The notes under the pieces are model-generated. The model searched no databases, was not told the DNA's origin, and saw nothing but the letters and a program-made list of their open reading frames with translations. From the NCBI GenBank assembly GCA_963716185.1, contig OY970295.1:1080356-1144355 (forward strand): 64,000 nt of DNA. The letters are read 5' to 3'. Position numbers and translations under genes: made by a program. The first letter of the stretch is position 1. Every line of letters starts with the position of its first letter. Source of the stretch: Thermodesulfovibrionales bacterium (GTDB taxonomy: Bacteria; Nitrospirota; Thermodesulfovibrionia; Thermodesulfovibrionales; SM23-35). Positions 2,975 to 31,915 of this stretch are shown here, in pieces.

Positions 2975-3010
2975 TTTTCAAATGATATCCTACAACAAAA
3001 AAAAAGAAAA

Positions 3011-4000: not shown

Positions 4001-4016
4001 AATTTATTCACTCCTT

Positions 4017-4790: not shown

Positions 4791-4810
4791 GCTGCACCTC
4801 CAAAATAAAA

Positions 4811-4835
4811 AGGCCACGGGTTAATTCCGTGGCCT
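4811..4835 (-). terminator. Hairpin terminator downstream of the RND operon (bidirectional shape)
   Basis: AGGCCACGG-N7-CCGTGGCCT, 9-bp GC-rich stem. On the minus strand it is followed by TTTTATTTTG, on the plus strand by TTAAGTTTTTT. Confidence 0.55.
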
Positions 4836-4989
4836 TTAAGTTTTTTCTATTTATCCGACTAACAGCTAATAGAAGCCCCCTTCGGCCACGGCATTAAAAT
4901 GCCATGGATTTCTGAGAAGTCTTTTTGCTATCAGTCGATTGCAACACATGATTTAAAATATACCCGCTTCAATTTTATGTCAAGAAAAA

Positions 4990-5019
4990 TTGATCCAAAA
5001 CTGCAATTCACTCAAATAT
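4990..5019 (+). promoter_or_regulatory. Partial copy of the conserved promoter-like module (site B)
   Basis: TTGATC-CAAAACTGCAATTCAC-TCAAATAT. The spacer is identical to sites at 3017, 57181 and 58980 (minus) apart from one missing A. It points antisense into the 3' end of the RND pump gene. Confidence 0.4.
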
Positions 5020-5034
5020 CCGCCATCGCTTTTT

Positions 5035-8000: not shown

Positions 8001-8199
8001 CGATTGGGACGCCGATGGTAGCCGCTACTACATCTGCGCTGGCTCCGGGATAACGGGATGTCACCTGAATAGTAGGCGGAACGATCTGGGGATACTGGGC
8101 CACAGGCAGACGGTTGAGAAAAACAAGCCCGATGATGACCGTCACAAGCGCTATAACGTTCGCCAGTATGGGCCGCTCAATAAAAAATTTGGAGATCAC
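5035..8199 (-). CDS. RND efflux transporter permease (AcrB/HAE1 type)
   Basis: 1054 aa. N-terminus MISKFFIERPILANVIALV, two large periplasmic loops and 12 predicted TM segments. Operon with adaptor and outer-membrane factor. Confidence 0.9.
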   Translation of the reverse strand: MISKFFIERPILANVIALVTVIIGLVFLNRLPVAQYPQIVPPTIQVTSRYPGASADVVAATIGVPIEQAVNGVEGSIYMSSTSGSDGSYALTITFDVGTDLDRSLTLVQNLVNGSLSQLPGGAQQQGVTVRKVSPNILLVVSLYSDDERFKEIFLSNYGVISLQNPLARLPGIGQVRVFGAGPYSMRVWLDPKRLQSFGLTTADVLTAIKGQNVEVAAGQLGAPPVPKDQLFQLTITALGRLSDASQFEDIIVKTATGSAAQIVRLRDIARVDLSQQSFSNFSKFTGHKSAQIVIFSLPDANAIQVADSVYKAMAEMSKKFPDGLKYAIRYDTTRFVREAITKVYETLFIAAALVLIVILLFLQNFRAMLVPATTVPVTLIGTFIAIAALGFTINLMTLFALVLAIGIVVDDAIVIVENSSYYIERGLPPKEATIKAMQELTGPVMGITLALVSVFLPAAFLPGITGQIFRQFALVIASIAVISAINALTLKPVQCAFWLKPRGEKPVNWFYRGFNRVFQSMTNVYIGAVSRMVRHPALSVIVFLIIITLSFMLFLTRPTGFLPTEDQGYGVLVARLPEGASQPRLQELAEQINDILKKTAGVDFWVTIGGLSILDGANVSNVSTTFVVYKDWQDRSTALSQDRIISSINRELFRLQDAQAFIVIPPPIRGLGQTGGFQMMVEDRGSLGLAELKRATDELVQAGNSQSSLGGLATTLSVGSPQIYLNINRTKAESLQVPLSDVFDTLQSYLGSSFVNLFNKYNQVFQVYIQADNRYRLRSEDIRNLYVRNQVGEMVPMGSLIDVKRVQGSELITRYNLYPAATIFGSAAPGFSSGQALSLMEQEADKTLPEGMAYEWTSTSYQEKKVGSQAYFIYALSIILVYMVLAALYESWTSPAAVILVVPMALVGVLLALITRGYDNNLYTQVGLVLMIALASKNAILIVEFARDLHHGGMSIAEAAIEATRRRFRPIVMTSFAFILGVAPLVIAFGAGSAGQRAIGTVVFGGMLASTLLAIPFVPVFYVVMESLSERLRNRKKPSSETGPPGAKSGDIS

Positions 8200-9566
8200 T
8201 TTGCCCTTGTTTCTCCGGAGGACGCGGAGTTTTTTCCGGAAGGAACATTTTCTCGCTCCGGTGAGACCCGCCGTCCGGGGGCGGCTTTCAGCAAGCCTTT
8301 AACTATGACCCATTCCTTTCCGGTGAGGCCTTCTTCGATGACACGCATCTGTTCCACAAGGGGGCCGGACTTCACGCCTCGGCGCTCTACCAGACTCTTG
8401 TCGTTGACAATGAGGACATATGATCCCTGCTGGTCGCTGCCGAGAGCCGCATCAGGCACCAGCAGTGCAATCTGCTTCTCAAGAGGCACACGCACGCGGG
8501 CGTACAAACCGGGCAGAATCTTCCCTGCAGGATTTCGAAAGACCCCCCGCATCAACAGGGTACCGGTAGTGGAGGTGAGGCTGGTAGCGGCAAAATCGAG
8601 ACGGCCCCTGTGCGGATAGTCATCTTCTTTGACCAGGCCGATAAATACAGGCCATTTTTTTGCGTTTGCCAGTCCCGGTATCCCGTGCGTACTTTTCATC
8701 AGGCGGGCCAGGTCGACGTCACTGATTGTGAAATAGACATAGATGGGGTCGATCTGGCTAAGCTGGGCCAGCACCGTATTGTTTGCCGCGGATCCGACCA
8801 GATTGCCCGGGTCCTGCAATCTTCGGTCTATCCTGCCGTCAAAAGGAGATGTGACCCGGGTATAATCCAGGTTAAGTCTGGCCAGGTCCCTGGCAGCTTC
8901 TGCCGCCTTCAGGTTGGCTCTGGCGGAATCCCGCTGATACCGCCAATTGTCAACGTCCGTTTGTGCGGCAGCCTTCTCAGGCAATAGATTGGTGTAACGG
9001 TCAAATTGGCTCTGGGCGTACGCCATCTGGGCTTTTAGAGCGGATACCTGGCCCTCAGCCTGCTCAAGTCCTGCTATATAAGTATTCTGCTGGATGAGAA
9101 AAAGCAATTCGCCTTTTTTGACCATTTGTCCGTCTTGAAAGAAAACTTTGTCGAGATACCCCGGGACGCGGGCTACCAACTGCGCCGTATTAACCGCCTG
9201 CGTATTGCCGGTCAACTCCAAATAATCCGTTACTTCACGCTGCACGGGCTGGGAGACGGTGACTTCCGGCGGAGGGGGGGGCGCCTGAGTCTTCTTTCCA
9301 CAGCCGGCCGGTAGGAGAAGGAAAAACAATAATATGGCGCAGGTCGTGATGACGTGAAACGGATAGCGAGCGCATTCCCCATTGCTTGTGCTTGATAAGG
9401 GGTTAGTGAGCGAATATGATAAAGAAGGATTCCTTACGTTAAGATACCCTGTGGTCTTGCAGGGTTCTTCATTCTGCTGTAAGGTCCTTTTTTTTCCGCA
9501 AGCCATTATTTTACCTCCGTGCTTACTTCGCTCACGCTGCTCCGATCTATCATTCACCGTTACCAA
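8196..9566 (-). CDS. RND efflux periplasmic adaptor (membrane fusion protein)
   Basis: Lipobox LLLPAGCG followed by an HlyD/AcrA-type coiled-coil and barrel region (VARVPGYLDKVFFQDGQMVKKGELLFLIQ). Stop overlaps the pump start. The track start is a TTG overlapping the OMF stop, so the true start is uncertain. Confidence 0.8.
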   Translation of the reverse strand: MVTVNDRSEQRERSKHGGKIMACGKKRTLQQNEEPCKTTGYLNVRNPSLSYSLTNPLSSTSNGECARYPFHVITTCAILLFFLLLPAGCGKKTQAPPPPPEVTVSQPVQREVTDYLELTGNTQAVNTAQLVARVPGYLDKVFFQDGQMVKKGELLFLIQQNTYIAGLEQAEGQVSALKAQMAYAQSQFDRYTNLLPEKAAAQTDVDNWRYQRDSARANLKAAEAARDLARLNLDYTRVTSPFDGRIDRRLQDPGNLVGSAANNTVLAQLSQIDPIYVYFTISDVDLARLMKSTHGIPGLANAKKWPVFIGLVKEDDYPHRGRLDFAATSLTSTTGTLLMRGVFRNPAGKILPGLYARVRVPLEKQIALLVPDAALGSDQQGSYVLIVNDKSLVERRGVKSGPLVEQMRVIEEGLTGKEWVIVKGLLKAAPGRRVSPERENVPSGKNSASSGETRAK

Positions 9567-11161
9567 TCCGGAAGCCGTGCCGGGGATTTCGGCTTCTCGA
9601 AGACAGGAGGATTATATGATTCGGGAGCGAGCAGGTCTCCCCAGTTAGTGCGTTTTGCCATTTCCTTCCTGATGTCGGGGGGCACCAAATCTTTTCCTTC
9701 CCGGATCTCCCAGCCTCCGCCCAGTGCCCTGTAAACTCCGACCAGACTGCTTGAGATGCTGCCCAGCGTAGCGGCCAGATTATCTTGTTCGTTCAGTAGA
9801 GACTGCTGCGCAGTCAAGACAGTGGTAAAATCCCTGACCCCTTCCCGATATTGCTTGACCGCAAGATCGAGAGCGTTCCTGGCAGCCGTTGTACTCCGGG
9901 CCAAAAACCGGGCCCGTTCCTGCGCCCTCAGGAAAGCGACCAGATTGTCCTCTACCTCCTGTTGGGCCTTGAGAACAGCGTTCTGATAAGTGATGAGCAG
10001 CTCCTGCAGCCGTGCGTCCTGAAGCCGGACATTGTTTGTGATCCGGCCATAATTAAAGATGCTCCACTGGAATAAGGGACCGGCCTGGATATCGCGACTG
10101 CTCCATTTGAACATATCGATAAGCCTGGATTTCCCTATATCAGTCGAGAGAAAACTGAAACTTCCGGCAAGTGAGAAAGCAGGATACAGGTCGGCTTTGG
10201 CAACACCGATTTGTGCACTTTGGGCTGCTGCCTGGTATTCGGCGCTCCTGATATCAGGGCGGCGCCGGAGGAGATCAGCGGGGATGCCGACTGCAACCTG
10301 GGGCGGGGAAACAGGAATCTCTGAAGGACCTTTCAGATAATCCGACAGGTCGCCCGGTGCTAAACCCAGCAAGACACTGAGGGCATGACCGGCCTGACGG
10401 AGTTGCGCTTCGAGAGATGGTATTGCTGCAAGCGTATTATCGAGCACTGTTTTCGCCTGCTCCACATCCAATTGTGTGACAGTACCATATTTAAAACGGG
10501 CCTCGGCGATCTTCAAACTCTCTCTCTGGGTCTCCGCATTCTCACGGGCAATTCTGATCCGCTTTTCGAGAGTCCTGATCGTGATATAGGAATTTGCAAC
10601 ATCCGCCGTAAGGCTCACCAATGCGTTGTCATAGTCGGCAACTGTTGCATGCCAGCCCGCATCCGCTGATTCGATCGCCCGCCTGAACCTCCCCCAAAAG
10701 TCGAGCTCCCATGCGGCATTTGCGCCTATCTGAGACTCGTGGTACTCAGGGAAGGGGAAGGCCCCTCCCGCACTCGGCCTGTTATACTGTAAGGAACCGG
10801 AGGCCTGCTGGGTCTGCGGGTAGAATTCCCCAACCGCGATGCCTAGCTGCGCCCTCGCCTCCAGCACACGGACGCCGGCAATCCGGATGGAGAGGTTCTC
10901 CCTGTACGCCTTGTCGATAAGACGGTCCAGGACAGGGTCTTTGAATGTCTTCCACCAGTTGCGGTAGTCCGCTGACTCACTTTTTACCCTTTCATCCCCC
11001 GCCTCCATCCAATTCCGGGAAATCGAAACCTCGGGCCGCTGAAAGTTCGGCCCCACCTTCATGCAGCCTGGGAGGGAAAAAACAAAAATGAGCAGCGCGT
11101 ACCAAAAATGTTTTTCAGGCGAACGCGTAAATTCCGCGGCGCGAAGAATACATTTTCTCAC
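9560..11161 (-). CDS. Efflux outer-membrane factor lipoprotein (NodT family)
   Basis: 533 aa. Lipobox FSLPGCMKVGPNFQRPE and two OEP repeats. Confidence 0.85.
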   Translation of the reverse strand: MRKCILRAAEFTRSPEKHFWYALLIFVFSLPGCMKVGPNFQRPEVSISRNWMEAGDERVKSESADYRNWWKTFKDPVLDRLIDKAYRENLSIRIAGVRVLEARAQLGIAVGEFYPQTQQASGSLQYNRPSAGGAFPFPEYHESQIGANAAWELDFWGRFRRAIESADAGWHATVADYDNALVSLTADVANSYITIRTLEKRIRIARENAETQRESLKIAEARFKYGTVTQLDVEQAKTVLDNTLAAIPSLEAQLRQAGHALSVLLGLAPGDLSDYLKGPSEIPVSPPQVAVGIPADLLRRRPDIRSAEYQAAAQSAQIGVAKADLYPAFSLAGSFSFLSTDIGKSRLIDMFKWSSRDIQAGPLFQWSIFNYGRITNNVRLQDARLQELLITYQNAVLKAQQEVEDNLVAFLRAQERARFLARSTTAARNALDLAVKQYREGVRDFTTVLTAQQSLLNEQDNLAATLGSISSSLVGVYRALGGGWEIREGKDLVPPDIRKEMAKRTNWGDLLAPESYNPPVFEKPKSPARLPDW

Positions 11162-11281
11162 AACAATCTCCTGTTTTTAACTATAAGAACAATTATGACT
11201 TCAAGCCGCGCTTTGTCAAGTAACGGCACCGGGCAGAACGCATTTCCCTCACGATCCGGCGCGACCTGACGAGTGAAAAAA

Positions 11282-11310
11282 TTGACATGGCTCATATCCC
11301 GTGCTATAAG
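11282..11310 (+). promoter_or_regulatory. sigma70-type promoter candidate for yceI
   Basis: TTGACA (11282-87), 17-nt spacer, TATAAG (11305-10), about 60 nt upstream of the ATG. Confidence 0.45.
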
Positions 11311-16342: not shown

Positions 16343-17833
16343 ATGAGAATCCATACTTCCCGGAACATGATATTAATACTTTCAGCAATCTTTTTTGTTT
16401 TATTTAGTCCCGCTATCTTATCTGCCCAGCCTTCAGAGAGTGAATATGTCGGGGCTGAAGTATGCATGGGATGCCACCAAAAAGAATACGATCAATGGAA
16501 AACATCCGGCCATGCACAAATTCTTCATAAGCCAACTGAACAAAGAATTGAAGCTATCCCTTTTCCTGACGGCTTTAACAGGCAGAATACTTCGTATGTA
16601 ATCGGAGGTTACAGATGGAAGGCGCTATTCCTTAACAAGGATGGATATTTGATTACCTCAACGGCTGCAGAGCAAGGGAAAAACCAGTACAACCTGAAAA
16701 GTAAAATATGGGTTGATTATTTTCCAGGGCAAAAGATCCCTTATAATTGCGGCAGATGTCATACTACCGGCTTTTCATCCGAGGCCCATCAAAATGCACT
16801 TGAAGGTATTGAAGGAACCTGGAAGTTTGAAGACGTACAATGTGAAGTATGTCATGGTCCGGGTGCCCTCCATACTCAGTCGTCTCTTAAAACAGATATA
16901 AAGATAGACAGAAATATCTGTTCACAATGTCACGGCACAAAACCTTTGGATGTGATCCCACTTCAGGGTGTTTTCCTTGCACCATATACAGAGGCCAATC
17001 AATTGATGAAAAGCAGCATGAGAACATTCACGTGTATTGTCTGTCATAACCCCCACCTTCCCGCTGACAAGTCCATTAAACAATCATGTGAGTCATGCCA
17101 TCAGAAAACAGCGGCAGAATATAAAGGTAGCTACATGTATAAGCTTGGCGTTAAGTGCACGGATTGTCATATGCCCTCTGCCGGTATTATTGCTGAAGGA
17201 GACGCAAAAACGTTTAATGGTGATTTTAAAAGTCACTTATTCAAAATCGACCACCGAAAAGAATTCCCGGTTATAACAAAAAACGGCCAGAGGATAAATC
17301 CCGGGTATCTAAGTGTTGATTATGCCTGTATGAGATGCCACAGCCTTTATCACAACAGACAATGGGCTGAAAGTACAGCTATGTTTGCTCATAAAATAAG
17401 GATTACGACTGACATTAAAATAATGCGCCTTCAAATGATATTTGCCTATATTGGATTTATTTTTTCTGTTATAGCACTTGTATCTGCACTGTCTTTGAAG
17501 AACTGGCTCTTTCCAAAAGCAAATAAGAAAAAAATGCTGATTATTCATAGATTCGCCGCATGGATTAGCTTCGCAGTATACATATTTATTTCGACCATAT
17601 GTATCTATTTTCATACCCCTCTCGATAATCTTTCTGAAATGCTCAATCTTGGTTGGTTTCTTATACACCCTATTAACGGTATGATCGGGTTGATTATTTA
17701 TGGAGGCAAAATCATAACGGTGAGAAAATATAAATCGGGATGGAAAACCCACGGACTTTTGTGGGGAGTGGGAATATTTATTTTTTGGCTGATACAGATT
17801 AGCACCGTACTTGTTCATTTTCAGATATTTTGA
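16343..17833 (+). CDS. octahaem c-type cytochrome fused to a C-terminal 4-TM domain
   Basis: Signal peptide and eight CxxCH motifs (CMGCH, CGRCH, CEVCH, CSQCH, CIVCH, CESCH, CTDCH, CMRCH). From about aa 365, four hydrophobic helices with His in TM2/TM3 (IIHRFAAW, LIHPING). Confidence 0.8.
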   Translation: MRIHTSRNMILILSAIFFVLFSPAILSAQPSESEYVGAEVCMGCHQKEYDQWKTSGHAQILHKPTEQRIEAIPFPDGFNRQNTSYVIGGYRWKALFLNKDGYLITSTAAEQGKNQYNLKSKIWVDYFPGQKIPYNCGRCHTTGFSSEAHQNALEGIEGTWKFEDVQCEVCHGPGALHTQSSLKTDIKIDRNICSQCHGTKPLDVIPLQGVFLAPYTEANQLMKSSMRTFTCIVCHNPHLPADKSIKQSCESCHQKTAAEYKGSYMYKLGVKCTDCHMPSAGIIAEGDAKTFNGDFKSHLFKIDHRKEFPVITKNGQRINPGYLSVDYACMRCHSLYHNRQWAESTAMFAHKIRITTDIKIMRLQMIFAYIGFIFSVIALVSALSLKNWLFPKANKKKMLIIHRFAAWISFAVYIFISTICIYFHTPLDNLSEMLNLGWFLIHPINGMIGLIIYGGKIITVRKYKSGWKTHGLLWGVGIFIFWLIQISTVLVHFQIF

Positions 17834-19319: not shown

Positions 19320-20678
19320 ATGTCAGATAAAATAATGAGAGCACTTCTGGTCATCACGATCGGATTTCTATTTCTTATTTATTGTTCGGATGTCTTTGCG
19401 TTGCCGAGCTTTGCGCGACAGACGGGGATGGAGTGTACGGCATGTCATACTGTCTGGCCGGAGTTGACACCTTTCGGGCGTTTATTCAAGCTGAACGGTT
19501 ATGTACTCAGCAAGAGCACTAAGTCTTATGAATTCCCGCCGCCGATAACCGGAGGAACACAACTTTCATTCACTCATCTTGATAAGGCGCTGCCTCACGA
19601 TTTTGTTAATCGAAATTGGGCAACCCACACCCTTTCTTCAGGAAATGACTTCATGAACTTTCCGCAGATATTGACTGTCTATTATGGAGGCCGCATTTAC
19701 GACAAGATTGGGGCTTTTATACAGGGCACTTACGACGGCGCGGGTAATTCACTTATGCTCGACATGACGGATATTCGGTATGCGAACAGCACCAGTCTGT
19801 TCGGGAAGAATCTTGTTTATGGAGTCACGGTTAACAACAGCCCGACGCTTCAGGACGTATGGAACAGCACTCCTGCGTTCAGTTTTCCCTACGCAGTGTC
19901 GAGCGTCGCTCCCACACCTGCAGCTACACCGATTATAGCAGGGACTTTGAACCAGCAGGTGGGTGGGCTGGGACTCTACGGTTTATGGAACAATTTGGTA
20001 TACGGAGGGGTGGCTGTTTACCAAACGACAAAACATGGCATTGCGATACCTTTAGGAGTCGGCACTACGACCGATATGGTTGTACATGGCGCCGCACCAT
20101 ATTGGCGGTTAGTATTGCAGCATCAGTGGGGCGAACATTATCTGTCAGCCGGCACTTATGGGATGACCGCCGAAATCTATCCAGAAGGAAGGAGCAGCGG
20201 ACAGACAGACAGGTTCACCGATGCGGGCTTCGATGCCCAATATCAGTACTTTGGCCCCAAGCATAGTATTTCGGTACATACCACATGGATTCATGAGAAC
20301 CAAGACAGAGAAGCAAGTTTTGTCATGGGGGATGCTACTAACCAATCGGACTACCTCGATCAATTTATGATACACGGGCATTACTATTACAAAAGCAGTT
20401 TCGGAACTTTAGCCGGAACCGTTGGATTCTTTTCCACGACGGGAAGCAAAGACAAATTTCTCTACTCCCCGGGACAAATTGATGGGAGCAGGACGGGTAA
20501 TCCCGACAGTAATGGCTTTATACTCGAAGCCGATTATTTACCGATGAAACAGGTTAAGTTTTCCCTGCAATACACCATCTATAACAAATTCAACGGTGCG
20601 GGTTCAAACTATGACGGATTTGGCAGGGACGCCTCTGATAACAACACACTTTATGCGCTTATTTGGATTATGTTTTAA
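19320..20678 (+). CDS. outer-membrane beta-barrel protein with one N-terminal haem c site (Cyt572-like by recollection)
   Basis: Signal peptide and a single CTACH at about aa 38. The rest is rich in alternating aromatic/Gly beta-strand patterns and ends in ...IWIMF (terminal Phe typical of OMPs). Confidence 0.55.
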   Translation: MSDKIMRALLVITIGFLFLIYCSDVFALPSFARQTGMECTACHTVWPELTPFGRLFKLNGYVLSKSTKSYEFPPPITGGTQLSFTHLDKALPHDFVNRNWATHTLSSGNDFMNFPQILTVYYGGRIYDKIGAFIQGTYDGAGNSLMLDMTDIRYANSTSLFGKNLVYGVTVNNSPTLQDVWNSTPAFSFPYAVSSVAPTPAATPIIAGTLNQQVGGLGLYGLWNNLVYGGVAVYQTTKHGIAIPLGVGTTTDMVVHGAAPYWRLVLQHQWGEHYLSAGTYGMTAEIYPEGRSSGQTDRFTDAGFDAQYQYFGPKHSISVHTTWIHENQDREASFVMGDATNQSDYLDQFMIHGHYYYKSSFGTLAGTVGFFSTTGSKDKFLYSPGQIDGSRTGNPDSNGFILEADYLPMKQVKFSLQYTIYNKFNGAGSNYDGFGRDASDNNTLYALIWIMF

Positions 20679-21635: not shown

Positions 21636-22055
21636 TTAGACGTCGCACTTTATCAGGGGGAGAGTGATTATGAACTCCGTTGCATCGCCGCTCAAAACGG
21701 AAATCTTCCCGCCGTGTCTCATGATAATGGAATGAACATTTGCCAACCCCAGTCCGCTTCCGTCTATCTCGGACGTCCCGAATGGAGAAAATATGTCTTT
21801 TATTATATGCGGGTGAATCTGTTTGCCGTTATTAATGACCGATATCACAATCTCTTTCTGTTTCGGTTTCAGTTTGGTCTTTATCAGGGTCCTCGTAGCC
21901 GAAGCTTCGGCAGCATAACGAACAAGGTCTGCCAGGCATATTGAAAGCATATTTTTATCGAAAGCCGCATTTACTCCGTTCAGCCGTTTACTCAATTTCA
22001 GTATCGGTCTCGGGCTGGCCAAGACCATCCGGGCATCGGGATCATCTCCATGCAT
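21636..22055 (-). pseudogene. C-terminal HATPase_c fragment of a histidine kinase
   Basis: Only N/G1/G2 boxes are present (VISVINNGKQI, IFSPFGTSEIDGSGLGLANV, GGKISV). No HisKA or sensor part. Abuts the GH57 relic. Confidence 0.6.
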
Positions 22056-22485
22056 AAACCCATTTCAGGAGGCCAGAAGCCCTGAAGCTGATCCCGTCCA
22101 AGGAGATGCCTTCCAAGGCCGGTCCACCAGGATGTCTGGGCGTCCCAGTCGCTGTCAGGGATCAAGGGATAAACAGGATGATAAAGGCCGCTTCCGACAA
22201 ATTCGATGTTGGACCGCCTGTAACGATTAAGAAAGTCCTCTATATATCCACCACATCATGAAAGGTTTCCCTTATGGCAGGGTCTTCGAACTGCTTCAGC
22301 AGCGTGCCTGAAAAGCCCATATGGAGCCTTGCTATGTCTTCATAGCCTTCCAGCATCCGGGCCGGTCGGTCGTAACACCACAGAATCTGTCTTGCCTCCC
22401 ACCTTTCGTCGGAATTATGCAGGGCCAGAAGATTTCCGAGCGGCTGATGCATATTCAGTCCAAGTGCGTGATAGACTTCAGCCAT
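22001..22485 (-). pseudogene. N-terminal relic of a GH57 glycoside hydrolase gene (frameshifted and truncated)
   Basis: MAEVYHALGLNMHQPLGNL...GFSGTLLKQFEDP, then after a frame change at about 22243 ...NIEFVGSGLYHPVYPLIPDSDWDAQ...GFWPPEMG. These are GH57 N-terminal motifs. Reading ends at the junction with the kinase fragment. Confidence 0.6.
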
Positions 22486-22596
22486 CAGTATTCACCTCCA
22501 TATACTTTTACAAGGTATCACAAATCAGAGTTCGCCGCAACAAAAAGAAGAGATCTTCCGGTAGCCCTTCAGTGGAGCGTATGACGCGGCGAAGCA

Positions 22597-22677
22597 AGAA
22601 AGATTTCCGACGCGCTTGCGCTTGCGGGAATGACAACCGGAGTGAATTGTCATTCCGGCTTGTCCGGAATCTTTCTT
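22597..22677. repeat. REP-like composite hairpin repeat (units B then A)
   Basis: GATTTCCGACGCGCTTGCGCTTGCGGGAATGACA ... TGTCATTCCGGCTTGTCCGGAATCTTTC. Both units recur at 28190-28268. Confidence 0.8.
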
Positions 22678-22758
22678 AAATGCCACGATTGACTGAAGGG
22701 TTACGGTCTTCCGCTCTGATGCATGGACATAAGCCCTGATAGAAGATAAAATTATAGA

Positions 22759-25700
22759 ATGGCGTACAGCGAAACGATCACCACGGAAAGTGGTATTACA
22801 ATCAGGATAGAAAAAAGCGTTTTTGACAATGCTGCGGAAGTAGTTTTTCGAATTGAAGGCCATATGGATTGCCTGCTTCATTGGGGACTTCGTCGCAACC
22901 CGTATATGCCCTGGCAGGTCCCCCCGGAGCACGCCTGGCCCGAGGGCAGCAGGCCATTCGACCATACAGCGCTACAAAGCCCCTTTATCCGAAAAAACGG
23001 CTCCGGAGAAATCATTATCAGATTGGACCTTGCCACGGGTTTCAGGCTGCTTGATTTTGTCCTTTTTTTACCGGTACAAGGCCGCTGGGACAATAACCAT
23101 GGCAGGAACTACCGCGTCGAAATTCCATCTGCCGGGAAAGAAGCATCTCATGAACCGTCCCTTGGTAATCCGGACCTCGATCATATCGCGGGTGAAATCA
23201 TTGAGAAGGAAATGAGCCGGAACTCATGGACATTGATGCACCGTTTCAATCTCTGTCACGTCCTGCTGGATAAAATCAGGAGCACTGATCTTGACGGGAT
23301 GGCGCTTATCTTCGTGTGGCTGCGATTTTCGGCCATCAGGCAGCTGGACTGGCAGCGAAATTACAATACCAAGCCGAGGGAACTGGGACACGCCATGGAC
23401 CGGCTGACTCTTAAACTCGCGGACCGTTATGTAAAAGAGAAGGGCGAGCGTGAAATAATCAGGCTGATAATGACCACCCTCGGACGGGGAAGTAATGCGC
23501 AGCGTGTCCGGGACGAGGTCTTGAATATCATGCACCGCCATCATATCCATGAAGTAGCCGGCCACTTCATGGAGGAGTGGCATCAGAAACTGCACAACAA
23601 CACTACACCGGACGACATCGTTATTTGTGAAGCCTACCTCGAGTTTTTAAGAAGCAACGGGAACCTCAATCGGTTCTATCAAAGGCTCGGGGAAGGGGGC
23701 GTGACAAAGGAAAGGCTGGAAAGCTACGAACGCCCGATAAAATCCGATCCTGATTTTATTCCGTATCTGAAAGACGCGCTGACCGGTGATTTCGAACATT
23801 TCCTGGGGATCCTGAGGGAGGTGCATGCCGGCAGCGATCTCGGTGTGGCAATTCAGGCATCGCGGTACCTTTTCGATGCTGAAATGCACAGCCTCATGGA
23901 TTTTATCTGGTCACACCAGAATGACAGTGATATAAGCCTGATCTTGAAAAAGATCACGGAATCGCGCCTGCGTATGGCGACGCACGGGATCGAAGAGCCT
24001 TCATACAAAGTGCGTGACCTTCTCTTCCTCGACATCGCATTGGAAGATTTCCTGCGCGTTGTGGTAGAACGAAACCTCGGTCCTCAAATGAGCAGCGATC
24101 AACTTGTGGAGATGATTACGGAAGTTCTCGAAAACCTCTGTATCTCGAATAAAGATCCCGAGCTTCAAAACTGTCTGGACCAGTGGAAGCGTCTCAAAAA
24201 ACTTCCGCGTTCCGGAAAGGAGTGGCCGCTCCATGCACAAGCGGTCCTCGAACGCATAGGGCGCGCTCTTGGCTCCTTCAGCGACCGCTATAGCAGACTA
24301 CTGCAGCCTAAGGCGGAGTTCCTCGGCGGTGCCTTTCATGCAGATCCATGGACGATCGACCTTTTCAGCGAAGAAGTCCTGCGCGGTCGTCCCGCATTTG
24401 TTCTTTCGATGATTTTGCGCTACCTTGATCCTATCTTGCGAAAGAGCGCCGACCTTGGCAACTGGCAGGTGGTCAGCAGGGGGCGCGGTACAGGAGAAGT
24501 AAAAGTTGTAGATACTTTAAAAGATGTTCAGGGAGAAAGTTTTGCTCATCCTGTTGTCCTGATCACCGGGAAAATAACCGGGGATGAAGAAATACCACAG
24601 GGAGTTGCTGCAATTGTCACACCTTCGCTGATCGATAGTCTGTCCCATCTCGCTATCCGTGCGAGAAATGCCGGAGTGCTGTTTGCGATCTGTTATGATC
24701 CTGAGACCATCAGCAGATTAAAATCTCTTGGCGGCCGTGTGCTCAGGCTCAGCATCAGGAATTCCAACGACATCAGTTTTGAAGAAAGCCATGAGGAGAT
24801 AGGCGGTCTGCCGACCCGTCCAGTCGAAGTTCATGCGATTACAGCCCGGAGAGGTTTCACAGTTTATGCCCTGCCCATGGGTGATTTCAATGAGAGCAAC
24901 GTCGGATATAAATCAAACAAGCTCAGAAATATCCAGGGGAAGTTGCCGGCATGGATAGGTATTCCGGCTTCGGCAGCCCTGCCCTTCGGGGTTCTTGAAA
25001 AGGTACTTGCTGAAGAGAATAATAAAGATATTGCAGAGAAATATGCGGAACTGACAAGACAAATCGAGAACGCGCAGGGGAAAGAGAGGCTGGAGGCGCT
25101 TGCCGAACTGCGCAAGGTTATGCTGGCCATTAAGGCCCCGGAAGAACTTGTCACTTCTCTTCGAAGGGTTATGGAGGAAACAGGACTTGGATGGCCTTCC
25201 GAATGGGATGAGGCGTGGATGCGCATCAAACGCGTATGGAGTTCAAAATGGAACGAGAGGGCTTATCTGAGCCGGAAGGCCAACGGGATTCCCCACGATG
25301 CTCTCGCAATGTCAGTGCTCATTCAGCGAGTGGTCGAATCCGATTACAGTTTCGTAGTCCACACTGTCAACCCTCTTACAGGGGCAAAAGATGAGATTTA
25401 TGCGGAAGTAGTATCCGGTCTCGGTGAAACGCTCGCTGCAAACTATCCCGGAAGGGCGCTTGCCTTCACATGTAAAAAAGCAGGGAAAGAGCCCCATCTC
25501 CTGTCTTTCCCGAGCAAGAGTACGGGCCTGTACGGAGGCGGCCTTATTTTCCGTTCAGACTCAAATGGAGAAGATCTTGCGGGTTATGCAGGAGCGGGGC
25601 TATATGACAGTTTCATGCTTCCGCAGCCGCGCAGTGTTTCTCCGGACTATGCACGCGACAACCTTGTCTGGGATGAAAGTTTCCGCAAGGACCTCCTTAC

Positions 25701-25830
25701 TGCCATAGCAGACATCGGCAGGATTGTTGAAGATGTGATGAAATTTCCCCAGGACATCGAGGGAGCATACTCAAGAGGTCAATATTCCGTTGTACAGACT
25801 CGTCCGCAGGTGGGGATAGAGAATGATTGA
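22759..25830 (+). CDS. alpha-glucan,water dikinase (GWD)-like protein with CBM45-like N-terminus
   Basis: 1023 aa. Phosphohistidine loop GDEEIPQGVAAIVTPSLIDSLSHLAIRARNAGVLFAICYD. ATP-grasp part VWSSKWNERAYLSRKANGIPHDALAMSVLIQRVVESDYSFVVHTVNPLTG..EIYAEVVSGLGETLAANYPGRALAF...IFRSDSNGEDLAGYAGAGLYDS. N-terminus LLHWGL....PWQVPP..WPEGS...RWDNNHGRNYRVEI. Confidence 0.75.
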   Translation: MAYSETITTESGITIRIEKSVFDNAAEVVFRIEGHMDCLLHWGLRRNPYMPWQVPPEHAWPEGSRPFDHTALQSPFIRKNGSGEIIIRLDLATGFRLLDFVLFLPVQGRWDNNHGRNYRVEIPSAGKEASHEPSLGNPDLDHIAGEIIEKEMSRNSWTLMHRFNLCHVLLDKIRSTDLDGMALIFVWLRFSAIRQLDWQRNYNTKPRELGHAMDRLTLKLADRYVKEKGEREIIRLIMTTLGRGSNAQRVRDEVLNIMHRHHIHEVAGHFMEEWHQKLHNNTTPDDIVICEAYLEFLRSNGNLNRFYQRLGEGGVTKERLESYERPIKSDPDFIPYLKDALTGDFEHFLGILREVHAGSDLGVAIQASRYLFDAEMHSLMDFIWSHQNDSDISLILKKITESRLRMATHGIEEPSYKVRDLLFLDIALEDFLRVVVERNLGPQMSSDQLVEMITEVLENLCISNKDPELQNCLDQWKRLKKLPRSGKEWPLHAQAVLERIGRALGSFSDRYSRLLQPKAEFLGGAFHADPWTIDLFSEEVLRGRPAFVLSMILRYLDPILRKSADLGNWQVVSRGRGTGEVKVVDTLKDVQGESFAHPVVLITGKITGDEEIPQGVAAIVTPSLIDSLSHLAIRARNAGVLFAICYDPETISRLKSLGGRVLRLSIRNSNDISFEESHEEIGGLPTRPVEVHAITARRGFTVYALPMGDFNESNVGYKSNKLRNIQGKLPAWIGIPASAALPFGVLEKVLAEENNKDIAEKYAELTRQIENAQGKERLEALAELRKVMLAIKAPEELVTSLRRVMEETGLGWPSEWDEAWMRIKRVWSSKWNERAYLSRKANGIPHDALAMSVLIQRVVESDYSFVVHTVNPLTGAKDEIYAEVVSGLGETLAANYPGRALAFTCKKAGKEPHLLSFPSKSTGLYGGGLIFRSDSNGEDLAGYAGAGLYDSFMLPQPRSVSPDYARDNLVWDESFRKDLLTAIADIGRIVEDVMKFPQDIEGAYSRGQYSVVQTRPQVGIEND

Positions 25831-28009
25831 AACAAAGCAGGTCCGCATCGGCAGTCAGAGCTCTTTCTCCGCGCATCCATTATTGCAGCCGTTTGAATAT
25901 GCCGTGGCTCATGGTTTCGACGCCTTTGAGTGGCTCCCTGACAAAAAAGAGTCCGGAGAAGGCTGGACCGAAGAGGACATGTCGAAGGAAACGCGGGTCG
26001 TCGTCAGGGAAACCGCACGCGCAAGAGACATCGACCTTTCAGTTCATGCTTCTCTTCAGACAAACGCCGGGAAACAAGGGGCAGGCGGATTATTCGAAAA
26101 AAGTGTTGAGTTTGCCCTGGATATCGGCGCAAAACTTTTCAATATTCATTTTCATCCGGGTGAAGGGATCGAGGCTTACGTCGAATCAATCACGCCGTTA
26201 ATGGAGATCTTATCACAGGCAGGCATCAGGCTTTCTGTTGAGAATACCCCGGACACGGCCCCCCAGGATTTCAACAGACTGTTCAGATATCTCATCAATC
26301 TGCGTCCTCCTTATCTTTCTTCCATCGGGATGTGCCTGGACATCGGCCATGCCAACCTCTGCGAACAGACCCGGAACGACTATCTCAAATACATTGACCT
26401 GCTCGATCCCATTGTACCGGTCACTCACATTCATATGCATGAAAACTACGGGGATTATGACAGCCACCTCACGATTTTTACCGGCCCGGCGGGGAGGGAC
26501 CCATCAGGAATAAGGGGCCTCATAGAACGCATGAAGAAGCGGGGGTTTTCGGGCTCTGTCATCCTTGAGCAATGGCCTGAGCCTCCTGACTTGCTCGACA
26601 ATGCCCGAAACAGACTTCTTGATATGATCGCCGGTTCTCCTGAGTTTTTCAGGACACATACTCATGGGTTCTTATATCGGCAGCGTGCCGGTGAAAAAGA
26701 GGGCACGAAAAAGGGCAAGGGGATGATCATCTATAATTTATTCCCTCTCCTCGCCGGCAAATTTACTGGATGGGAAAGTCATTTATCGAGGGCGTCAGAG
26801 ATGGGCTTTACCTGGGTCTTTGTTAATCCCATTCAGCTTCCCGGGTCTTCCGGAAGCATCTATTCTATAAAAGATTATTTCAGTTTCAACCCCCTTTTGA
26901 TCGATTCAAAAAGTGCGGAAACTCCTCAGAAACAGATAGAGGAGACGATAAAGACCGCTGAAAAGCTGGGTCTCAAGATGATGGTAGACCTTGTGATAAA
27001 CCACTGTGCAGCCGATTCGGATCTGATCAGATCACATCCCGAATGGTTCCTCCGTGATGGAAAGGGCCGTATCGCTCATCCCTTTGCAAGCGAGGACGGG
27101 AAGAAGGTGGTATGGAAAGACCTCGCGCAGTTCGACCATAGAAATACGAGGGACAAAGAGGGTATCTTCCTTTTTTCCCTCGGTGTAGTGAAGTTTCTTG
27201 CCGAGCTCGGTTTTAAGGGGTTCAGGTGTGATGCCGCGTATCAAATTCCTGCGAGTCTGTGGGAAAGGCTCATTAGGGAAGCGAAGAAGACATACCCTGA
27301 CCTTATCTTTTTTGCCGAGACGCTCGGGTCCACTCCCGACTTGACAAGAAAAACTGCCGCATCCGGTTTTGATTATATATTCAATAGTTCAAAGTGGTGG
27401 GATTTCAACAGCCAATGGCTGATGCAGCAATATGATCTTACGCGCGGAATCGCCCTTTCCATCAGCTTCCCTGAAAGCCACGATACGGCGAGACTCAGCG
27501 AGGAATTGAACGGGAACACGGACGGGCTTAAACAGCGGTACCTTTTTTCCGCCTTGTTTTCGGCAGGAGTGATGATGCCTGTTGGGTTCGAATTCGGTTT
27601 TCGGAAGAGACTGCACGTCGTGAAAACAAGGCCCGAAGATTGGGAAGAAACAGGCATTGACCTGACCTCTTATATAACCGAAGTGAACAAGATTAAGGCG
27701 GAGCACGCGATCTTTCAGGAAGATGCCCCGACACAGATACTTCGTCACAGGAACGCGGGAGTCTTGCTCATGTGGAAGGCATCCACTCACATACAGGAAG
27801 AATCCCTGCTTATTCTCAATAAGGACATTTACAACAAGCAACATTTTTACGAAGAAAACCTTCAAAAATATTTACAGGCTAGGGCCCCCCTCATTGACGT
27901 CTCTCCCGAATATCCACTGGACTATATCCCTGTGCCTTTTTCCTACGAACTGCAGCCGGGACAGGGCATCGTGATGATAACTTCAAGAGACAACGTATCC
28001 GAAGATTGA
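25823..28009 (+). CDS. fusion of a xylose-isomerase-like TIM-barrel domain and a GH13 alpha-amylase-family (GlgE-like) catalytic domain
   Basis: ATGATTGA overlap with the upstream stop. aa 1-290: LDIGHANL, THIHMHENYGDYDSHL, ILEQWP (AP_endonuc_2/sugar-phosphate isomerase fold). aa 300-728: IIYNLFPLLAG...MGFTWVFVNPIQ, VDLVINHCA, GFRCDAAYQIP, FFAETLG, ESHDTARL (GH13 regions I-IV). Confidence 0.7.
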   Translation: MIETKQVRIGSQSSFSAHPLLQPFEYAVAHGFDAFEWLPDKKESGEGWTEEDMSKETRVVVRETARARDIDLSVHASLQTNAGKQGAGGLFEKSVEFALDIGAKLFNIHFHPGEGIEAYVESITPLMEILSQAGIRLSVENTPDTAPQDFNRLFRYLINLRPPYLSSIGMCLDIGHANLCEQTRNDYLKYIDLLDPIVPVTHIHMHENYGDYDSHLTIFTGPAGRDPSGIRGLIERMKKRGFSGSVILEQWPEPPDLLDNARNRLLDMIAGSPEFFRTHTHGFLYRQRAGEKEGTKKGKGMIIYNLFPLLAGKFTGWESHLSRASEMGFTWVFVNPIQLPGSSGSIYSIKDYFSFNPLLIDSKSAETPQKQIEETIKTAEKLGLKMMVDLVINHCAADSDLIRSHPEWFLRDGKGRIAHPFASEDGKKVVWKDLAQFDHRNTRDKEGIFLFSLGVVKFLAELGFKGFRCDAAYQIPASLWERLIREAKKTYPDLIFFAETLGSTPDLTRKTAASGFDYIFNSSKWWDFNSQWLMQQYDLTRGIALSISFPESHDTARLSEELNGNTDGLKQRYLFSALFSAGVMMPVGFEFGFRKRLHVVKTRPEDWEETGIDLTSYITEVNKIKAEHAIFQEDAPTQILRHRNAGVLLMWKASTHIQEESLLILNKDIYNKQHFYEENLQKYLQARAPLIDVSPEYPLDYIPVPFSYELQPGQGIVMITSRDNVSED

Positions 28010-28189
28010 AACAATTTGTTACATCCGGAATGTTGTATCGGCACCTCACTTTTAATCGGGCACGGTACGGGCTTAACTCACATCACCTAAATGCAAATAA
28101 ATCGGGACAGGTGCTGCAAGTCCATACCCACATTAGTACAGCGCGACGAAATAGTGTCTATTTATAAACTCGATTAGTTACCATTTATC

Positions 28190-28268
28190 TGTCATTCCGG
28201 CTTGTCCGGAATCTTTCCGATGGCGTCTAAGAAGGATTCCCGACGCGCTTCACTTGCGGGAATGACAG
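28190..28268. repeat. REP-like composite hairpin repeat (units A then B)
   Basis: TGTCATTCCGGCTTGTCCGGAATCTTTC-N17-GATTCCCGACGCGCTTCACTTGCGGGAATGACA. Same units and orientation as 22597-22677 but in swapped order. Confidence 0.8.
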
Positions 28269-28339
28269 TTTTCTGAGTTTCTGGGTACCTTATGAACAGA
28301 GACTAAATATTCAGCTTTGTCGGAGGAAATATACCTATT

Positions 28340-28513
28340 TCAGCGCGCCCCCAATTTCTCTAATATTGCTTTTAATGTAGCCTCTTCAACCTTCAGTTCC
28401 TCTTTAAACTCGTGTTTGCCGCCCGAAGCAATCTCACCCCTAAGCTCGGGTATATAGTCCTTAAGCACTGATACAAGAGCATCCTTTTCTTTGTCCGTCA
28501 GATCTAAGTTCAT
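28340..28513 (-). CDS. small hypothetical protein (57 aa)
   Basis: MNLDLTDKEKDALVSVLKDYIPELRGEIASGGKHEFKEELKVEEATLKAILEKLGAR. ATG at 28513 behind AAGAGGAGG. The longer track ORF start was rejected. Confidence 0.5.
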   Translation of the reverse strand: MNLDLTDKEKDALVSVLKDYIPELRGEIASGGKHEFKEELKVEEATLKAILEKLGAR

Positions 28514-28666
28514 GTCTAAACCTCCTCTTAAAAAATTTAAATTCAGACCACGTGGGCTCATTTATCATATTGCCTGAACCCTTAATTACACTTCTATCAT
28601 GAAAATTAAGGCAAGTCAAGGTCATGAACTTTGATTGGGATATTCATGTATCATTTGAGCGGAATA

Positions 28667-29335
28667 TTATTCAGAAAACATGCTCAATTTATCCGGGTCG
28701 GGAATGATTATCGTATTGTCCTTCTCGCTGATAAGCCCTCTCTGCTTCAGGAATGCCAATGCCCTCGATAAGGTCTCAGGGATTGTCCCGAGCAACGATG
28801 AGAGTTCCTTTTTTGAATACTTTAACCTGCAAAGCGTGATGCCGTTTTCGACTGTGCTGTTTTTTAATAAATACCCGGCGAGTCTCGCCTTAATGTCCTT
28901 TAGGGATAATTCCTCGATCCTGGAAACAAACTGCCTGAGCCTCTTCGAATAACCGCTCATCATCTTCAAGGCCAGTTCGGGATGTTCTTTTATGAGGTTG
29001 ATTATTCCCTCTCTTGAAACGCGCACCAGGACCGAATCCTCAAGAGCTGCACAGGATGCAGGATAAACCATGGAGTCGAATATCGCCGCTTCTGCCACAA
29101 GGTCTCCGGGATCATGGATATGCAGAGTATGTTCTTTGCCGTCCGCAGAAATTTTATAAATCTTGACCTTTCCCGAGACAACGATAAAGAAACCGGAGGC
29201 ATCAAGTCCTTCGGCGAATATCTCCTCTCCTTTCCCGACTTTTTTCAGAGAGGTAGATGTCAACAATAGATCTATTTCTTTTCCGGTGAAGGAACTGAAT
29301 AAGAAAGTGTTTAAGAGGAATCTCCGTACATCCAT
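28667..29335 (-). CDS. Crp/Fnr family transcriptional regulator
   Basis: 222 aa. cNMP-binding beta-roll (GEEIFAEGLDASGFFIVVSGKVKIYK) and C-terminal HTH (ELSSLLGTIPETLSRALAFLKQRGLI). Confidence 0.85.
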   Translation of the reverse strand: MDVRRFLLNTFLFSSFTGKEIDLLLTSTSLKKVGKGEEIFAEGLDASGFFIVVSGKVKIYKISADGKEHTLHIHDPGDLVAEAAIFDSMVYPASCAALEDSVLVRVSREGIINLIKEHPELALKMMSGYSKRLRQFVSRIEELSLKDIKARLAGYLLKNSTVENGITLCRLKYSKKELSSLLGTIPETLSRALAFLKQRGLISEKDNTIIIPDPDKLSMFSE

Positions 29336-30871: not shown

Positions 30872-31915
30872 TTATTCTACGAATATCCTCTTATTGTCTT
30901 TCATGCTGCCCGAAAGTACATCACCGATATGAGCTGAGAGAATACCTTCTTTTTGCAGGGCGCTGACGAGCCTGTCCTTGTTCTCACCCGGGACAAAGAC
31001 AAGGAGCCCGCCGGATGTCTGCGCGTCGTTCAATAGAAATTTTTCCGTATCCGACATCCCACTGGACCAGGACACATACGGCTCGAAATTCTTGAAGTTG
31101 GCAATTGAACCGCCCGGCACTTTTTTCATTTCCGCCAGCCTTACCGCTTCCACGAAAAACGGCACCCGGTTCGAGTAGATGTGAGCGCTCAGGTTGCTGG
31201 CGGAAAGCACTTCGTACAAATGTCCTAGGAGACCAAAACCCGTTATATCTGTCGCCGTACTAATACCGATCCCGACCATAATCTCACTGGTCCTCCTGTT
31301 TAAAGCCGCCATGGATTTTGTAAATTCTTCTATGGTGGCTTCACTGCAAAGGTTTGCTTTGACACCCGTAGAAATTATGCCTGTTCCAATCTTTTTGGTA
31401 AGAATCAGGGCATCTCCCGGTCTGGCCTTTGAATTATCAAGGATTTTATCAGGGTGAATAATCCCGAGAACAGCAAACCCGAATTTCGGCTCTTTATCTT
31501 TAATAGTATGGCCCCCGATGATCGACACTCCCGCTTCGGCCATTTTATCGATGCCGCCCTGCATGATTTTCTTCAGATATGGAAAAAATTCCGGCTGACT
31601 GGGGAACATTGCGATATTCAACGCGGCCAACGGTTTCCCGCCCATTGCATATATATCCGAGAGCGAATTCGCAGCGGCAATGGCGCCGAACCAGTACGGA
31701 TCATCGACGATCGGTGTAAAGAAATCCGTGGTCAAGACAACTGCGACATCATCCGTGATGCGATATACACCCGCATCATCAGCGTTGGATGAATCAACCA
31801 GTACGTTCTTATCTGTTATCTTAGGCAGCTGCCCCAGCACCTGGAGCAGGTCCGAAGGACTGAATTTCGAAGCTCAGCCGGAGCAAGTTGCAAGACTTGT
31901 GAGTTTGATGTCCAT
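30872..31915 (-). CDS. selD: selenide,water dikinase, selenocysteine-containing
   Basis: The track ORF (30872-31840) extends in frame upstream through TGA at 31876..31874 to ATG 31915: MDIKLTSLATCSG-U-ASKFSPSDLLQVLGQLP. U aligns with the catalytic Cys/Sec of SelD (GxG[CU]xxK). Downstream core DDAGVY, TTDFFTP, AANSLSDIYAMGG. Confidence 0.85.
31847..31862 (-). promoter_or_regulatory. candidate bacterial SECIS hairpin for selD
   Basis: CAGUCCUUCGGACCUG, a 6-bp stem with one bulged C, starting 12 nt 3' of the UGA. Confidence 0.45.

Follow-up and report, generated by a model that had tools for sequence, protein, structure and literature searches.

A 64,000-nucleotide stretch of DNA (hereafter, the window) from a Thermodesulfovibrionales bacterium of the phylum Nitrospirota (GenBank assembly GCA_963716185.1, contig OY970295.1, positions 1,080,356 to 1,144,355 of the forward strand) encodes two proteins that form the subject of this report. 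The first, GWD1, is a homolog of the alpha-glucan water dikinases (GWD) that phosphorylate plant starch. The second is a fusion of a xylose-isomerase-like TIM barrel, called TIM1, to a glycoside hydrolase family 13 (GH13) domain. The gene for the fusion follows that of GWD1, and the two make up one operon. The features of the operon are as follows.

22759..25830, plus strand: upstream gene GWD1, alpha-glucan water dikinase homolog, 1023 amino acids (aa)
25809..25816, plus strand: purine-rich Shine-Dalgarno-like GGTGGGGA, 7-14 nt before the fusion ATG, within the 3' end of the GWD1 reading frame
25823..25830, plus strand: overlap ATGATTGA of the fusion start codon and the GWD1 stop TGA (ends 25830), 8 nt, a translational coupling signature
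25823..28009, plus strand: fusion open reading frame (ORF), 728 aa plus stop
25823..26635, plus strand: TIM1 domain, aa 1-271, xylose-isomerase-like/AP-endonuclease-2 barrel of the MJ1311/endonuclease IV-like type
26636..26722, plus strand: interdomain linker, aa 272-300, predicted disordered, variable in length and sequence among fusions
26723..28006, plus strand: GH13 catalytic domain plus C-domain, aa 301-728, matching GlgE, AmyB, and 3dhu (Foldseek and PDB)
Fusion aa 24-257: Pfam AP_endonuc_2 (PF01261, xylose-isomerase-like TIM barrel), E 9e-22, 78.3 bits against a cut-off of 31.1
Fusion aa 306-407: Pfam hDGE_amylase (PF14701), E 5e-23, above the curated cut-off
Fusion aa 301-421: Pfam Alpha-amylase (PF00128), E 4e-9, above the curated cut-off

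The GWD1 reading frame ends ...GAGAATGATTGA, and the fusion ATG (25823-25825) lies inside its last codons. Specifically, the junction reads ...GAGAATGATTGAAAC..., with the fusion ATG at 25823 and the upstream TGA ending at 25830. A first-pass annotation, made from the letters alone, had pointed to this overlap, and the same 8-nt overlap of a GWD gene with a TIM gene recurs in the related loci L002 (4555/4562) and L003 (3263/3270). The annotated start codon is right because, in the family alignment, homologs of the fusion begin M-x-ETK-x-IRIGNQ. We infer a Shine-Dalgarno function for the nearby GGTGGGGA. A promoter and terminator scan of 21900-28800 returned counts at the level of shuffled sequence, and Rfam, run on the whole window, yields a single tRNA and no match close to the operon.

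Several lines of evidence mark GWD1 as a true GWD homolog by sequence. It matches the Pfam families Ig_N_CWD1 (PF23166), GWD1_pHisD (PF22973), and PPDK_N (PF01326), with three GWD-specific families represented. Its Ig-like domain lies at the N-terminus and its GWD domain in the center, and it also has phosphohistidine and ATP-grasp domains. The central domain (aa 154-564) matches a chloroplast GWD (PDB 9ha9) at E 5e-90, and the phosphohistidine motif, SLSHLAIRARN, carries the predicted catalytic His 631.

The fusion's own Pfam matches lie far beyond chance. They bear out the two-domain architecture and the boundaries proposed in the first-pass annotation: PF01261 first, then GH13 from aa 301. 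In an AlphaFold2 (AF2) model built on a 48-sequence alignment, the predicted local distance difference test score (pLDDT) falls to 29-37 for aa 272-298, between two well-folded domains. Among fusions, the linkers measured from EQWP to MIIYNLFP span about 39 to 53 aa and differ in sequence. The combination had seemed unfamiliar, and it is indeed rare: about 15 clusters with the TIM plus GH13 architecture (59-83% identity) occur among 5.8 billion proteins (JGI, ENA, and NCBI metagenomes), and 2 of 80 species loci carry a TIM1-GH13 fusion. All 13 full-length homologs in that identity range keep nine putative metal ligands and seven GH13 catalytic or structural residues. An assembly chimera, in which no read would span the junction, had also been considered. 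However, a Logan contig from an independent freshwater-sediment run spans 25970-26830 with zero differences, and the 13 homologs conserve the junction. Thus, the fusion is not a chimera. The ORF is predicted to encode a genuine cytoplasmic bifunctional enzyme.

The metal site of the TIM barrel

The AF2 model of TIM1 (pLDDT 85) shows the eight beta/alpha repeats of a PF01261 barrel. The motifs singled out in the first-pass annotation are all present: LDIGHANL at aa 172-179, HIHMHENYGDYDSHL at aa 202-216, and ILEQWP at aa 247-252. They had been taken as the metal-site pattern of the AP-endonuclease-2/sugar-phosphate isomerase fold. The barrel assignment stands, but the site is not that of a generic isomerase. 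Specifically, hhalign aligns the TIM1 family with Escherichia coli endonuclease IV at E 1.8e-5 over 200 columns, and it pairs TIM1 residues H75, H109, E140, D173, H176, H206, D213, H215, and E249 with the nine zinc ligands of that enzyme, which we take to be H69, H109, E145, D179, H182, H216, D229, H231, and E261. (Residues 85-183 of the E. coli query were confirmed against the PDB search.) The nine putative TIM1 ligands are invariant in 25 family members. So are H202, H204, E207, W37, W48, and W251, plus several Trp, Asn, and Gln residues. TIM1 appears, then, to keep a complete nine-ligand metal site of the endonuclease IV type. This lends weight to the suggestion of the first-pass annotation that the TIM half could have a phosphate ester as its substrate.

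MJ1311 of Methanocaldococcus jannaschii (3wqo), annotated as a "D-tagatose 3-epimerase-like protein," is the nearest PDB profile match to the TIM1 family (E 2.4e-11), followed by endonuclease IV chains (E 0.009-0.05). MJ1311 shares with TIM1 the block H.H.H[DE]N.G..D.HL, although the two are only ~18% identical and MJ1311 is archaeal, stands alone, and lacks a glucan context. It reportedly retains the nine endonuclease IV zinc ligands and has no DNA-binding groove. MJ1311 has also been listed as the M. jannaschii homolog of endonuclease IV (PMC2770678). In an NCBIfam scan, the fusion matches no Nfo model, reaches no endonuclease IV or CbiR family threshold, and shows a weak match to CbiR (E 9e-5). 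CbiR is a phosphodiesterase of the AP-endonuclease-2 superfamily with a non-DNA substrate (PMC7733943); thus, phosphoester hydrolysis outside DNA has precedent in the superfamily. In contrast to endonuclease IV and CbiR, the fusion has no DNA-repair or cobamide context, and its presumed substrate is a phosphorylated glucan. A TIM1-like stretch also occurs at residues 3781-3978 (E 9e-63) of P0317, a 5557-aa giant in our representative library.

Could TIM1 instead be an isomerase, an epimerase, or a lyase that converts phosphorylated or keto sugars released by the GH13 domain? Public sources label its relatives "sugar phosphate isomerase/epimerase." A Foldseek search with the TIM1 model returns MJ1311 first (E 8.5e-13), and ketose 3-epimerases, the African swine fever virus (ASFV) AP endonuclease, the C-glycoside deglycosidase DgpB-C, and YcjR score similarly, with the epimerases, YcjR, and DgpB-C at E 1e-9 to 1e-11. 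Because MJ1311, the epimerases, and the ASFV enzyme fall within two orders of magnitude, the fold confirms the barrel and leaves phosphoesterase and epimerase unseparated. Ketose 3-epimerases use a single Mn/Co site (Glu, Asp, His, Glu) with a catalytic Glu pair and ketose-binding residues, and the four core ligands are present in TIM1 (fold E about 1e-10). However, endonuclease IV has two further metal sites that epimerases are not known to possess, and to these correspond the invariant H75, H109, H176, D213, and H215. Moreover, in relatives TIM1 is fused to the N-terminus of a dikinase that acts on polymers, which points to a polymer rather than to small products. We consider the sugar-converting role unlikely.

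The GH13 domain

The C-terminal half carries the conserved regions of the GH13 family.

26987..27010, plus strand: region I, DLVINHCA (D389, N393, H394), aa 389-396
27098..27124, plus strand: loop GKKVVWKDL, aligned by HMMER with the GlgE phosphate/-2 subsite loop NPPKKYQD and with AmyB RKVPDWSDV
27218..27250, plus strand: region II, GFRCDAAYQIP (R468; predicted nucleophile D470), aa 466-476
27308..27328, plus strand: region III, FFAETLG (predicted acid/base E499), aa 496-502
27473..27496, plus strand: region IV, ESHDTARL (H553; predicted transition-state residue D554), aa 551-558

All four regions had been reported as intact and are found so, as is the N-terminal signature (IYNLFPLLAG at aa 303-312 and MGFTWVFVNPI at aa 327-337). 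D389/H394, R468/D470, E499, and H553/D554 are invariant in the 13 fusions. The C-terminal half is therefore assigned to GH13, with a catalytic set that is predicted to be intact.

Which GH13 enzyme the domain most resembles depends on the measure used. By sequence, the best matches are AmyB of Thermotoga neapolitana (4gkl; E 1.5e-20) and the Lactobacillus plantarum amylase 3dhu (E 1.1e-18); by profile, the values are 3e-22 for 4gkl and 1e-23 for 3dhu. GlgE and the Thermotoga maltosyltransferase 1gju rank below both by sequence. By fold, Foldseek puts GlgE first (E 2.7e-25), with AmyB at 5.6e-22 among many GH13 structures. AmyB and 3dhu are compact intracellular GH13 proteins of about 420-450 aa with FRCD.A and KV..W.D motifs like those of the fusion's GH13 half. 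They differ in that they stand alone and are ~20% identical to it, and we are aware of nothing that ties them to dikinases or TIM barrels.

The resemblance to GlgE (alpha-1,4-glucan:maltose-1-phosphate maltosyltransferase, GH13_3), proposed in the first-pass annotation, survives in part. GlgE is the best fold match and, at ~20% identity, has in common with the GH13 half its KK..[YW].D loop and catalytic Asp/Glu/Asp. The maltose-1-phosphate site of GlgE comprises N352, K355, Y357, and N395 (Streptomyces coelicolor numbering; PMC4526890). In the HMMER alignment, the GH13 half keeps the Lys alone, with N352 replaced by Asp/Glu, Y357 by Trp, and N395 by Ala. In region I, where GlgE has Gln (Q324), the GH13 half has the canonical His394 (DLVINHC). 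The ~250-aa N-terminal domains of GlgE are absent: the GH13 part starts at the barrel, and its stand-alone form is 434 aa. Thus, given the differences in phosphate site, region I, and domain composition, the GH13 half lies outside the GlgE subfamily. GlgE is associated in genomes with treS/pep2. The gene tables of L001-L005 and L086 contain dikinases, TIM barrels, GH57 branching enzyme, and GlgA, but no TreS/Pep2 candidate in the form of another alpha-amylase-family or kinase gene; the 80 genome loci were scanned for cluster modules only.

These comparisons bear on a biosynthetic alternative, namely that the dikinase and TIM modules make or process a phosphosugar donor, from which the GH13 domain, as a transferase of the GlgE type, lengthens a glucan. 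The top structural match agrees with it, as do the JGI name of the relatives ("starch synthase (maltosyl-transferring)"), the Lys and Asp kept where GKKVVWKD aligns with NPPKKYQD, and the glycogen-synthesis genes that neighbor the relatives. Nonetheless, three of the four phosphate-site residues are replaced, His stands for Gln in region I, the N-terminal domains are missing, and the AmyB and 3dhu amylases outscore GlgE by sequence. Furthermore, GWD-type dikinases phosphorylate the C6 and C3 hydroxyls of polymers and are not known to act on anomeric carbons. We regard a biosynthetic role as quite improbable. That the nearest relatives all handle maltosyl units suggests, by analogy, a maltose-releasing or maltosyl-transferring specificity for the GH13 half.

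A five-module cluster and the origin of the fusion

To place the fusion among its relatives, one genome per species was scanned. The GH13 family occurs in 322 genomes, from which the best 80 loci were taken; all 80 come from uncultured Nitrospirota (Thermodesulfovibrionia, Dissulfurispiraceae, Candidatus Sulfobium) and Desulfobacterota. Five modules, mapped by tblastn, recur on these contigs in the order GWD1-TIM1-DK2-TIM2-GH13.

GWD1: about 1015 aa
TIM1: about 268 aa, PF01261
DK2 (dikinase-2): about 880 aa, phosphohistidine and ATP-grasp domains, no Ig-like N-domain
TIM2: 356 aa, no Pfam match on record
GH13: 434 aa

The 48 loci with at least 8 kb upstream show the following architectures.

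All five modules: 24 of 48 loci
GWD1-TIM1-GH13: 7 of 48
TIM1-GH13: 4 of 48
GWD1-GH13: 2 of 48
GWD1-TIM1-TIM2-GH13: 1 of 48
DK2-TIM2-GH13: 1 of 48
GH13 alone: 9 of 48

GWD1 is present in 34 of the 48 loci, and a TIM module in 37. The first-pass annotation had proposed checking co-occurrence with GWD-like genes and had allowed that the fused architecture might be common and unlinked to them; the fusion is rare, and its GH13 family keeps company with GWD1. Downstream, a GH57 branching enzyme, GlgA (GT5 glycogen synthase), and/or DUF4912 is encoded in 29 of the 57 loci with at least 4 kb of downstream sequence. Together, the module counts and these neighbors tie the GH13 family to GWD-like genes and to alpha-glucan metabolism. 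DUF4912 is regularly encoded between the GH13 gene and the GH57 branching enzyme gene, at L001 10321-11157 and in 21 of the 57 loci, and may be a partner in the glucan system.

Two of the modules look like copies of two others. TIM2 aligns with TIM1 at an hhalign probability of 99.65%, with equivalent His, Asp, and Glu positions, and appears to be a divergent TIM1 paralog. DK2 is a GWD1 paralog over its whole length except the N-terminal domain. Thus, the full cluster looks like two dikinase/TIM pairs plus one GH13 enzyme. In the Desulfobulbaceae locus L046, the four upstream modules (887-9739, minus strand) are divergent from the GH13 gene (10001-11284, plus strand); since they stay adjacent on opposite strands, the linkage survives inversion. 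Two loci have the GWD1 gene split in two ORFs, L002 (1510-4562; 337+680 aa) and L004 (225-3270; 768+248 aa). The split is probably a frameshift error or recent pseudogenization because the gene is whole in the near-identical L003 and L005.

The modules are variously fused: TIM1 with DK2, DK2 with TIM2, TIM2 with GH13, and TIM1 with GH13. The TIM1-DK2 fusion is the commonest, in that near-full-length TIM1 proteins in the 50%-identity representative library mostly measure 1100-1230 aa (one is Pfam-confirmed). L001/L034 and L062, like the window, have TIM1 fused to GH13. Two further representatives, of 738 and 758 aa, were considered as TIM1-GH13 fusions and set aside: Pfam shows a TIM domain only, and they are probably truncated TIM1-dikinase proteins. 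Stand-alone 268-aa TIM1 genes are common.

In the TIM1-DK2 proteins, TIM1 occupies the place held in GWD1 by the Ig-like glucan-binding N-domain. This position raises the idea that TIM1 is a recognition or targeting module for phosphoglucan, its metal site binding phosphate and steering dikinase-2 or GH13 with little or no turnover. The alternative fusion of TIM1 to GH13 would fit such a role, and plant PWD likewise requires a pre-phosphorylated glucan (PMC13011383). However, strict invariance of the nine ligands together with H202, H204, and E207 is more typical of a catalytic site, and the many stand-alone TIM1 genes also speak against a mere targeting module. We hold this to be a long shot.

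Comparison with the five-module locus L002 indicates how the fusion arose. By blastn, window 22742-26647 matches L002 1475-5379 at 76% identity, and window 26694-28010 matches L002 9037-10356 at 81% identity. Because this two-block alignment skips L002 5380-9036, the window lacks that segment, which holds DK2 and TIM2. In its place lies a short scar.

26648..26693, plus strand: deletion scar, 46 nt without L002 counterpart, in place of L002 5380-9036

By these alignments, the fusion is a reduced five-module cluster from which dikinase-2 and TIM2 were lost by a deletion of ~3.6 kb. The metagenome contig L086 offers a natural and recent case of such a deletion, by which five modules became three. 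L086 (1-3150) is 97.3% identical to L002 (4547-11204) on both sides and lacks L002 5494-8989 (3,496 bp), and its GH13 ORF starts with 26 N-terminal residues of DK2 joined to the last 26 residues of TIM2. In the three-module locus L066, a dikinase-2 remnant (9649-9831; 39% identity over aa 535-603) persists between TIM1 and GH13, further evidence of dikinase-2 loss. In a neighbor-joining tree of GH13 domains, which is crude and has no support values, the TIM1-GH13 proteins are scattered among TIM2-GH13 and stand-alone proteins. Because the fusions fall in several places, a repeated origin is suggested; a single origin finds no support in this crude, support-free tree.

The junction retains a trace of the separate gene. 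The ancestral start of the separate 434-aa gene survives as Met301 in every fusion; stand-alone homologs begin ...MIIYNLFP. Since a Shine-Dalgarno-like AAGGG sits about 7 nt upstream of this retained start, internal initiation of the GH13 half is conceivable. One could thus ask whether faulty assembly or sequencing produced the fusion, or whether it is a functionless by-product of deletion now in decay: it did arise by the deletion of two genes, and the retained start with its AAGGG could in principle allow separate GH13 synthesis. The independent contig across the junction argues otherwise, as do the 13 fusions that have diverged to 59% identity with both active sites intact and with varied linkers, and the several tree positions, which suggest repeated origin and retention. 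An artefact or decaying by-product is scarcely credible.

A possible glucan phosphorylation cycle

The sequences establish the architecture, the conservation of the catalytic residues and of the cluster, the operon coupling, the tie to glycogen genes, and the origin by deletion; from these we infer the substrate of every module, a phosphoesterase chemistry, and a physiological role. The notion is of a storage alpha-glucan that GWD phosphorylates, that the TIM barrel relieves of its phosphate esters, and whose chains are cut by the tethered GH13 domain. Specifically, GWD1 would use ATP to add phosphate monoesters to a storage alpha-1,4-glucan. The trinuclear, endonuclease IV-type metal center of TIM1 would then recognize and hydrolyze the glucan-bound phosphates. 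TIM1 would thereby do, without homology, the work of SEX4, LSF2, and laforin, the glucan phosphatases of plants and animals. Finally, the flexibly tethered GH13 domain would act on the alpha-1,4 chains thus loosened, probably cutting them in maltosyl units like its nearest relatives GlgE, AmyB, and the Thermotoga maltosyltransferase. With the phosphate-handling domain tethered to it, the glucanase would not stall where it meets a phosphate group. The genuine GWD partner, the link to glycogen genes, and the nine-ligand site of phosphoesterase type support this proposal, as does the fact that the fusion partners of TIM1, dikinase-2 and a glucanase, are both expected to act after a first phosphorylation. 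We adopt it tentatively, at a shade short of an even call.

Several points weigh against the proposal. TIM1, TIM2, this GH13 clade, and the bacterial GWDs are known from genes alone, and the closest structure to TIM1, MJ1311, has no known function. For TIM1, Foldseek ranks ketose 3-epimerases alongside AP endonucleases. It looks futile to join a phosphatase to a dikinase, as the commonest architecture would do, and TIM1 may have a task different from plain dephosphorylation, for instance to bind or transform phosphoglucan. Since the glycogen of bacteria is normally soluble, it is unproven that they need a phosphorylation cycle, and no glycogen-synthesis gene was found within the 64-kb window. 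A broader form of the proposal is that anaerobic Nitrospirota and Desulfobacterota possess a complete, operon-encoded cycle of glucan phosphorylation and dephosphorylation, in which TIM1 and TIM2, as a new class of trinuclear-metal TIM-barrel enzymes, would be glucan phosphatases paired one-to-one with the two dikinases. We consider this broader form possible but doubtful.

The system invites comparison with starch phosphorylation in plants and algae (GWD, PWD, SEX4/LSF2, and beta-amylase/ISA3). Bacterial GWD1 belongs to the same Pfam families as plant GWD, with the same His motif and a match at E 5e-90, and the second, paralogous dikinase of the full cluster, lacking the N-terminal glucan-binding domain, parallels the GWD/PWD pair. 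The likeness extends to the company of the dikinases: encoded with them are an enzyme that cleaves alpha-glucan and candidate proteins for the handling of phosphate esters, and genes for glucan synthesis are linked to them. Unlike the plant system, this one is bacterial, belonging to uncultured anaerobic Nitrospirota and Desulfobacterota, operon-encoded, with its modules variously fused, and known from genes alone. The candidate phosphatase is a metal-dependent TIM barrel, and the glucanase belongs to GH13 rather than being a GH14 beta-amylase. Pfam finds no dual-specificity phosphatase (DSP) domain of the SEX4/LSF2/laforin type and no carbohydrate-binding module (CBM) in the fusion or in GWD1; the likeness of TIM1 to these phosphatases would be one of functional analogy only.

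Beyond the operon, other genes in the window merit mention. About 700 nt upstream of GWD1, a 139-aa ORF (21636-22055, minus strand) contains HATPase_c only, without a sensor or HisKA, and may be a truncated kinase. A gene for an MtrC/MtrF-like multiheme cytochrome (16343-17833, plus strand) is followed by a histidine kinase gene, beyond which (19320-20678, plus strand) lies a gene for a 452-aa protein that begins like a signal peptide, has a single CxxCH (CTACH), and gives no Pfam match. The cytochrome and the 452-aa protein may form an extracellular electron-transfer module of the porin-cytochrome type. An IscA/HesB-type Fe-S biogenesis protein (PF01521; 29440-29856, plus strand) has an unusual Cys/Gly/Ser-rich C-terminal tail (GGASTCGSSSCGSGGSSSSCGSGCGSCG). 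Finally, a SelD-like selenophosphate synthetase gene (AIRS/AIRS_C; 30872-31915, minus strand) is listed with a GTG start at 31840. Its upstream reading, MDIKLTSLATCSG*ASKFSPSDLL, has an in-frame TGA at 31876-31874. Because this TGA is in frame within the active-site GxG[C/U]xxK motif, it is probably a selenocysteine codon, with the true start at an ATG near 31915.

The folds of the cluster are known; what is new is the cluster system and the proposed role of a metal-dependent TIM barrel as a glucan phosphate esterase. Our literature search found no paper on bacterial GWD clusters, TIM-barrel glucan phosphatases, or the TIM1-GH13 fusion, and the first 300,000 of the 445,374 characters of a 2024 review on prokaryotic alpha-glucan enzymes make no mention of water dikinases or phosphoglucan. 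A 2018 study states that GWD had been reported only from starch accumulators and puts bacterial copies down to lateral transfer, in line with a view in the field that GWD arose with the Archaeplastida (PMC6260743).

Reversible phosphorylation of glucan is seen as a defining trait of eukaryotes that store starch. The clusters described here suggest that bacteria have a counterpart, so far undescribed, to the phosphorylation cycle of plant starch. If the broader form of the proposal holds, these bacteria would store a poorly soluble, starch-like glucan, and bacteria could have been the donors of the eukaryotic GWD/PWD machinery and not its recipients. With hundreds of species carrying the cluster, phosphorylation of bacterial storage glucan, a non-DSP glucan phosphatase, and the origin of GWD all become testable. 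The two-gene version in the window, a dikinase plus a bifunctional enzyme, is the simplest form for reconstitution in vitro, and such enzymes could serve in starch modification.

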